Virus record (IMG/VR): IMGVR_UViG_2534682234_000016
Coordinates: 1 to 7,673 of that record
Direction: 5' to 3' (one strand)
Length of the DNA: 7,673 bases
DNA from: a virus
Taxonomy: Duplodnaviria > Heunggongvirae > Uroviricota > Caudoviricetes
The notes below the pieces were generated by a model. The model was not told where the DNA came from, searched no databases, and was given only the letters and a program-made list of their open reading frames with translations. The first letter of the stretch is position 1, and every line of letters begins with the position of its first letter. Below, piece by piece: positions 2,629 to 3,511 of this stretch. Both the position numbers and the translations under genes were made by a program.

Positions 2629-2730
2629 CCAGGCTTGTGGGGAGCATCAACTCCGTGCTTTGTCGTTAAATTACCCCGTGAGCCTGATTTCTGACATTTA
2701 ACGTCCCGGCCTTTTGTCGGCGGCGAAACA

Positions 2731-3048
2731 TTGGCTATTCATATGCACGAAAAAGAGAGCCTTGCCGGAGCGTTCTGGCTCGTTTTGCTGATCATCGCAG
2801 GTTGGGGCGGTCTGGTCCGCTACCTGATAGATGTGAAGCAGAGTAAAGCAACGTGGAGTTGGATAAATGCTCTGGCTCAAATAGTGGTATCAGGATTCAC
2901 CGGTGTTATTGGTGGCCTGATCAGCATCGAAAGTGGATTCAGTATTTACATGATTCTCGCGACAGCGGGGATTAGTGGTGCGATGGGTTCGGTTGCACTG
3001 ACGTACTTCTGGGAACGACTGACAGGGGTGAAAAATGCAAAATCTTAA
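2731..3048 (+). CDS. Class I holin (three predicted TMDs), non-lambda sequence type; start ambiguous (TTG 2731 or ATG 2743)
   Basis: 105 codons from TTG 2731, or 101 from ATG 2743. Three hydrophobic segments (LAGAFWLVLLIIAGWGGLV, WINALAQIVVSGFTGVIGGLISI, FSIYMILATAGISGAMGSVALTYFW) and a charged C-terminus. Sits immediately upstream of the endolysin and overlaps it by 14 bp. The sequence differs from lambda S as I remember it. Confidence 0.75.
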   Translation: MAIHMHEKESLAGAFWLVLLIIAGWGGLVRYLIDVKQSKATWSWINALAQIVVSGFTGVIGGLISIESGFSIYMILATAGISGAMGSVALTYFWERLTGVKNAKS

Positions 3049-3511
3049 TCCTCAGCGTAAAGCCTTCCTCGATATGTTGGCGTGGTCAGAAGGAACGGAT
3101 AACGGGCGACAACCGACACGTAACCACGGTTATGATGTTATTGTTGGCGGCGAACTGTTTACTGATTACTCCGATCACCCTCGCAAACTTGTCACGCTAC
3201 ACCCCAAACTCAAATCAACAGCCGCCGGACGTTATCAGCTTCTTTCACGCTGGTGGGATGCTTACCGTAAACAGCTTGGTTTGAAAGACTTCTCCCCCAA
3301 AAGCCAGGACGCAGTGGCATTGCAGCAGATTAAAGAGCGTGGTGCTTTACCTATGATTGATCGCGGTGATATCCGTCAGGCAATCGACCGTTGCAGTAAT
3401 ATCTGGGCTTCACTGCCGGGCGCTGGTTATGGTCAGTTCGAGCATAAGGCTGACAGCCTGATTGCAAAATTCAAAGAAGCTGGCGGAACGGTCAGAGAGA
3501 GTGAGGTATGA
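3035..3511 (+). CDS. R: Endolysin R (lambda-type lytic transglycosylase)
   Basis: 158 aa, essentially identical to lambda R after the first ~7 residues ([20 protein letters not shown]...[24 protein letters not shown]...). RBS AGGGGTG upstream of the ATG. Confidence 0.95.

Follow-up and report, generated by a model that had tools for sequence, protein, structure and literature searches.

Phages of the lambda, P22, L and HK97 type carry exchangeable lysis modules, with gene 13/19 in some and S/R in others. The modules change abruptly at a gene border, the genes that replace each other are analogous but unrelated, and the modules are found recombined with one another. Boundaries of this type have been textbook knowledge for decades. 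Canonical holins let out any soluble endolysin non-specifically, and therefore holin and endolysin genes are exchangeable. In phage L, gene 13 has been genetically defined as the holin gene via 13am43 (PMC8022706). For the R-Rz-cos-nu1-A tract, exchange between lambda and DLP12 occurs at high frequency, is Red-beta or RecA dependent and is stimulated by cos; without homology no recombinants were detectable (De Paepe et al., 2014; PMC3945230).

Here we describe a boundary of this kind in a DNA stretch of 7,673 nt (the window), which matches positions 2271699-2279371 of the E. coli O157:H7 strain F3113 chromosome with 100% identity and belongs to a lambdoid prophage integrated adjoining icd. A further seven genomes match at least 94% of its length. 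The F3113 genome was already sequenced and annotated, and the gene coordinates below were taken from the RefSeq annotation and the ORF list.

1-1143, minus strand, int
1133-1369, minus strand, xis
1509-1735, two gene remnants (1509-1649, minus strand; 1643-1735, plus strand)
1732-2421, Q
2422-2696, plus strand, late-operon leader, which travels with the Q (PF06323) module
2693-2703, left boundary of the holin cassette, about 41-48 nt 5' of the holin ATG, where homology to the SF-468-type copies and DAM starts; similarity to prophages that share the holin and differ in Q is lost leftward at about 2697-2703
2743-3048, plus strand, holin of 101 aa, PF16083 (Phage_holin_3_3, LydA type), RefSeq WP_000544528.1
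3035-3511, plus strand, endolysin R of 158 aa, lambda-type lytic transglycosylase
3508-3969 and 3728-3910, Rz and Rz1
3' of Rz, bor, ybcV (lambda p78), ybcW (p79) and ylcI
6046/6047, cos (lambda 48502/1)
6236-6781, Nu1
directly after Nu1, the 5' part of A

Several RefSeq gene names in the lambda-like part are derived from DLP12 (rzpD, ybcV, ybcW, ylcI, nohD). Holin, R and the Rz/Rz1 spanins would act, in this order, as the lysis cassette of the Q-dependent late operon. We consider it highly probable that the holin/R border is a real lambdoid module boundary of an ordinary kind, at which a LydA-type holin cassette abuts an endolysin of the lambda R family. The preliminary description had called it a classic lambdoid module boundary and was right about both its kind and its location: the transition is abrupt, it lies at a gene border, the genes involved are analogous and unrelated, and the same modules are recombined elsewhere. 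Compared to the known lambdoid lysis modules the locus is the same in kind, with the border lying inside a 14-nt overlap so that the first two to three endolysin codons move with the holin.

For comparison with lambda by BLASTN, lambda positions 43000-48502 were joined to 1-3000. With a word size of 7 a single alignment was obtained, in which window 3040-7673 corresponds to lambda 45498..48502/1..1628 with 96.9% identity, and no lambda similarity was detected in the holin, Q and int-xis regions. The megablast matches to all lambda records begin at 3052, equivalent to lambda 45510 and thus the first base past the S stop (45509), and reach the window end, likewise with 96.9% identity. Identity to lambda therefore steps sharply near 3050, as had been predicted: nothing matches left of about 3040, the match runs from 3040/3052 onward, and instead of uniform divergence across 2700-3500 an abrupt transition within about 10-20 nt is seen. 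The Q-like gene and int-xis were also correctly described as non-lambda. Q belongs to PF06323 and lambda Q to PF03589 in Pfam, and Int, a homologue of lambda Int, is only 35% identical to it.

Other comparisons place the joint at the same site. The similarity to R of phage SfIV begins at 3044, and about 1780 complete E. coli genomes that do not have this holin match only from window 3047-3052 rightward. Approached from the holin side, in phages that carry GH108, M15 or GH24 endolysins and not R, homology stops at 3033 in Klebsiella phage 6 LV-2017 and at 3041 in Salmonella PM43/ST64T, where identity still covers ATGCAAA (3035-3041). Among 78 prophage loci with an identical holin protein no polymorphism was found over 3010-3050. 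In R they first differ at positions 3051, 3058 and 3061, and two major R allele classes are apparent by 3077-3119. Three independent lines thus converge on a module boundary no more than about 20 bp away from the holin/R overlap, at about 3042-3061, which agrees with the earlier placement within about 30 bp of the overlap.

3035-3048, plus strand, holin/R overlap of 14 nt, read from the sequence
3042-3052, best estimate of the joint between holin module and R module (conservative range 3035-3061)

The R ATG sits inside holin codons N98-A99, and the holin gene ends with TAA at 3046-3048. This position of the R start within the holin tail suggests that translation of R may be coupled to that of the holin. 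The sequence of the overlap, ATGCAAAATCTTAA, is similar to the holin lineage (ATGCAAA...TAA in PM43, RAH1 and Meifeng) and also to the R lineage, where SfIV has ATGCAGGTACTAAAT and its R starts MQVLNS compared to MQNLNP in the window. Because both lineages are partly similar there, the exact crossover cannot be placed finer within 3035-3052. Relative to lambda R, which starts MVEINN, residues 2, 3, 4 and 6 differ and agreement begins at residue 7, in line with the earlier statement that about the first seven residues are non-lambda. Residues 4-6 (L-N-P) are R-lineage-like (L-N-S in SfIV, I-N-N in lambda). An origin of all first six R codons from the holin module is disfavoured by SfIV and 606R2, which have MQVLNS and MQTLNS without the overlap, and by Enterobacter (MQTINP). 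This suggests that the overlap dictates only about R codons 2-3.

The partners of both genes change from phage to phage. Five types of endolysin are found 3' of this holin family, i.e., lambda-R, GH108+PG_binding_3, an M15_4-like peptidase, GH24 lysozyme and GH19. The combination with the lambda-R type occurs in the window, in Enterobacter intestinihominis and in a contig titled Chryseobacterium sp. 18061. Conversely, R stands behind S-type (PF05106) holins in lambda, SfIV and 606R2, and GH24 stands behind an S-type holin (191-517) in the P22-like Salmonella phage SF6. A holin family with five endolysin types and an R that also follows S-type holins mean that the modules reassort. The closest relatives show the same. 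Gp13 of the phages L, ST64T and PS3 falls like the window holin into PF16083, aligns over all 101 residues (73-74% identity) and has the 14-nt ATGCAAA overlap, but its partner endolysin is a 132-aa M15-like peptidase and not the lambda-R type. Further loci with other endolysins share the 14-nt ATGCAAA overlap, namely RAH1, PM43 and several from Enterobacter, Citrobacter and Yersinia.

Holin and R would have been brought together long ago, in one or a few events of illegitimate or microhomology-level recombination at their common border. The holin may have taken its place before an existing R, or R its place after an existing holin. Selection may have kept the pairing, as canonical holin and soluble endolysin would be functionally interchangeable, and the overlap would determine how the endolysin begins for two or three codons. 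Conserved DNA on either side may later have allowed homologous recombination to spread and re-assort the cassette, and homologous recombination among alleles may have produced the patchwork of R and the lambda-like tract that are described below.

A different role for the overlap would be that a conserved element, ATGCAAA(Y)CA..TAA, serves as microhomology that steers repeated holin/endolysin swaps to the same nucleotides. Four unrelated endolysin families behind this holin family do start with ATGCAA (MQT/MQI/MQN) within the holin tail K-N/D-A, and the overlap ATGCAAATCAG, with the holin tail ..ANQQ*, also follows the S-type holin of a P22-like phage. However, overlapping coding suffices to account for this, since the first codons of the endolysin necessarily come from the conserved holin tail. 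In addition, GH108 partners have a different overlap of 4 nt, the lambda S/R overlap differs in sequence, and seven shared bases are far below what Red or RecA recombination needs (PMC3945230). GH24 lysozymes natively start with MQIS or MQLS even without a LydA-type holin. The tails ..ANQ* and ..ANQQ* in S-type (SF6) and LydA-type holins are the out-of-frame reading of the GH24 5' end ATGCAAATCAG. The shared ATGCAA starts therefore fit overlap-constrained coding, and a junction element that guides exchange appears unlikely. The steering by microhomology we regard as doubtful. Its broader form, in which ATGCAAA...TAA would be a universal adapter across at least two holin and four to five endolysin families that steers recombination and preserves coupling, is more doubtful still; if true, such an adapter would allow any holin-endolysin pair to be swapped without loss of function.

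With the overlap read as ordinary overlapping coding at a module boundary, the DNA to its right was compared with R alleles of other phages. The R product matches lambda lysozyme (PDB 1AM7) over residues 2-158 with E=2e-100 and shares 149/158 residues (94%) with lambda R, leaving nine differences. In the 1AM7 alignment Glu is found at position 19 as in lambda R, which we take to be the catalytic residue. The alleles in SfIV, mEp234 and 606R2 are 158 aa long, too. No Pfam or NCBIfam model matches the window R or lambda R, which is a gap of the libraries and not a difference between the two. At the DNA level R falls into three parts, the last of which continues to the end of the window.

3053-3157, plus strand, R segment 1, SfIV-like, 77.4% identical to lambda over 3052-3157
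3158-3343, plus strand, R segment 2, a third allele, 90.3% identical to lambda
3344-7673, plus strand, lambda-like tract, 97.8% identical to lambda (4233/4330), with the 3' third of R, Rz/Rz1, bor, ybcV, ybcW, ylcI, cos, Nu1 and the 5' part of A

In segment 1 (codons 7-41) pS is 0.875 to lambda and 0.08 to SfIV, and positions 3095-3154 are 100% identical to SfIV. Segment 2 (codons 42-103) is about equally distant from both (pS 0.38 to lambda and 0.35 to SfIV). In codons 104-158 the relation is 0.08 to lambda and 0.74 to SfIV. Maximum chi-square change-points relative to lambda were located at 3157 and 3343 (permutation p <= 0.001 each). The informative sites form a run of SfIV type followed by a run of lambda type with the switch at 3352-3367, and the triplet test gave p=0.0002. 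R is thus a mosaic of three alleles, SfIV-like, a third allele and lambda-like from about 3344. The 5' differences from lambda are nearly all synonymous and therefore the near-identity of the R protein to lambda hides the divergence of its DNA. Protein-level lambda-like genes can in this way conceal several intragenic joints that are seen at synonymous sites only.

In the 78 loci with identical holin the R segments occur in many combinations (WWW, ooL, oLS, SoL, LLS and others). Shuffling within the gene is thus pervasive and not peculiar to the window.

The mosaic bears on the age of the border. In the simple version of the preliminary description, with the joint taken as recent, a single joint at the holin/R overlap is followed by near-identical DNA of lambda origin from about R codon 8. 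The border itself is real, and the 96.9% megablast match from 3052 to the window end and the 94% protein identity of R agree with this view. For the DNA it does not hold: the first 106 nt are only 77% identical to lambda with saturated pS and are near-identical to SfIV instead, two further intragenic change-points follow, and by mismatch density the lambda near-identity begins only at about 3344. Moreover, holin and R of Enterobacter intestinihominis are each about 75% identical to those of the window at the nucleotide level and share the same 14-nt overlap. A pair that has diverged so uniformly means that the pairing predates this divergence and that the border relative to lambda is old. A single recent joint is therefore very unlikely. 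The tract from 3344 on, in contrast, looks recently shared with lambda. Its near-identity through A, as described earlier, stands at 97.8%, although about 2% of it is diverged and a denser patch lies at cos.

The mismatches to lambda cluster at cos/cosB, with 94.6% identity over 5900-6235 and 16 mismatches in 5952-6151; Nu1 is 97.6% identical.

The tract carries the same genes as the R-Rz-cos-nu1-A tract exchanged between lambda and DLP12 (De Paepe et al., 2014; PMC3945230), about 98% identical to lambda and continuous across cos. In difference to that system the prophage lies at icd in O157:H7 and not at the DLP12 site, the holin is another one, and the left end of the tract is the R change-point at about 3344. 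Since the high-identity homology begins inside R, homologous exchange with lambda would leave this holin behind. The homology start at about 3344 is of practical use for the typing of O157:H7 prophages and for the design of lambda-prophage recombination. Otherwise the locus provides a nucleotide-resolution record of where one lambdoid lysis module gives way to the next and adds little beyond annotation.

The holin matches the PF16083 HMM with 77.7 bits (gathering cut-off 28.4 bits) over profile positions 2-78 of 78. Positive hydropathy marks about residues 9-26 and 40-90, and the C-terminal tail is charged; how many transmembrane segments there are was estimated by eye only. The predicted product fits a small multi-transmembrane PF16083 holin encoded just 5' of the endolysin, and a hole-forming or lysis-timing activity is predicted from its homology to phage L gp13 (74% identical). 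A search with the holin alone, as had been proposed for finding its donor lineage, placed it with the LydA or phage L gp13 type. The relatives in the phage collection are temperate Klebsiella phages (85-88% amino-acid identity) and the P22-like Salmonella phages L, ST64T, PS3 and ST160 (gp13, 73-74%), followed by the more distant Serratia phage Eta (66%) and Hafnia phage Meifeng (55%). Among GTDB species representatives the family is found in Enterobacter, Citrobacter, Dryocola, Yersinia, Erwinia and Photorhabdus.

The holin takes the place of lambda S on the map and was correctly described as non-lambda. Lambda S and the holins of SfIV and 606R2 all match PF05106 in Pfam, while the window holin does not match this family, and no similarity to lambda S was detectable by BLASTP (E=8.6) or by profile-profile comparison with hhalign (probability 3%). 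Could it nevertheless be an orthologue of lambda S that evolved so fast, next to a conserved R, as to be no longer recognizable, without any recombination? Pfam names both families holin superfamily III, and the global DNA alignment of the two genes scores slightly above codon-shuffled controls, of which 3/300 reach the observed score (top 1%). The gapped global alignment with about 58% identity is, however, near the background noise of mononucleotide shuffles (54% ± 2%). The slight excess over codon shuffles probably reflects the membrane-protein composition common to holin and lambda S, and remote homology of the two was rejected because of the 3% probability in the profile-profile comparison. 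In addition, the holin hardly varies among E. coli prophages and hence is not fast-evolving, it occurs with several endolysin families as R does with S-type holins, and the transition is abrupt. Divergence of an S orthologue is therefore barely conceivable. An assembly chimera or other artefact is of negligible probability, as about 1000 complete and independent E. coli genomes have the same junction, and so does the isolated phage PhiR47_2.

Of 5426 complete E. coli genomes, about 1000 carry the holin/R pair. PhiR47_2 (PV340567.1, 6344-6819; 99.6% identity) is the sole phage record with the same holin and R. In this record the R annotation is split into two CDS, and the alignment lacks one base relative to the window. 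The one-base shortfall in R of this isolated, plaque-forming phage indicates a frameshift or sequencing error. The PhiR panel has been used in the literature as lambdoid test phages. In CACSKA010000002.1 (titled Chryseobacterium sp. 18061), 1427-1693 encodes a holin 58% identical to that of the window, followed by a lambda-R-type endolysin. The Chryseobacterium label is unexpected for a lysis cassette of enterobacterial type and could be due to mislabelling or contamination.

The module boundary at R has a counterpart on the left side of the holin. The late-operon leader 2422-2696 shows 90-100% identity where a prophage shares Q (2013C-4974, CUWW06) and is unrelated (20-30%) where it shares the holin and has another Q (SF-468, ECONIH4, NWU_1). 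In the 78 IMG/VR loci polymorphism is dense as far as about 2701 and sparse beyond it. Diversity amounts to about 1% over 2700-3045, more than 25% leftward and 10-16% in R, a contrast that is partly inflated since these loci were picked for 100% holin protein identity. The holin is thus a single-gene cassette with two borders, spanning about 2697-3045.

The leader contains terminator-like hairpins at 2489-2515 and 2603-2619, and five terminator-like sites were observed compared to 1.0 expected. In the whole window no Rfam families (gathering thresholds) and no tRNAs were detected, and no RNA gene accounts for the region between Q and holin.

In several holin relatives a dual-start motif precedes the gene, ATG-A-K-R/H-ATG in RAH1, 733R5 and PM43 and MKRM in Eta. 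In difference to the MAKRM type of the relatives, the window reads TTG-A-I-H-ATG (2731-2745), with a weak candidate upstream start (TTG at 2731) and without the Lys. The Shine-Dalgarno sequence is degenerate (GGCGG instead of GGAGG), and SF-468-type copies have GCG where the first start stands. Judged from these sequences, an antiholin form may have been lost or weakened in the E. coli holin copies.

Compared to O157:H7 strain 493/89 the F3113 prophage carries a deletion of 11,382 bp with 1 bp microhomology at window position 1641, which leaves the remnants of a DUF4222 gene and of ylcG fused. With this deletion the prophage has lost exo/bet/gam, its repressor region and replication genes, and the nin region. 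As a consequence int-xis adjoins Q, and the F3113 prophage should be defective. The same icd prophage with an independent early-region deletion and other end-points is found in the non-O157 E. coli 2014C-3011 (NZ_CP027591.1, 2633-3688), in the order xis, a small ORF and Q without its N-terminus. Loss of the early region with int-xis and late genes kept therefore seems to be recurrent.
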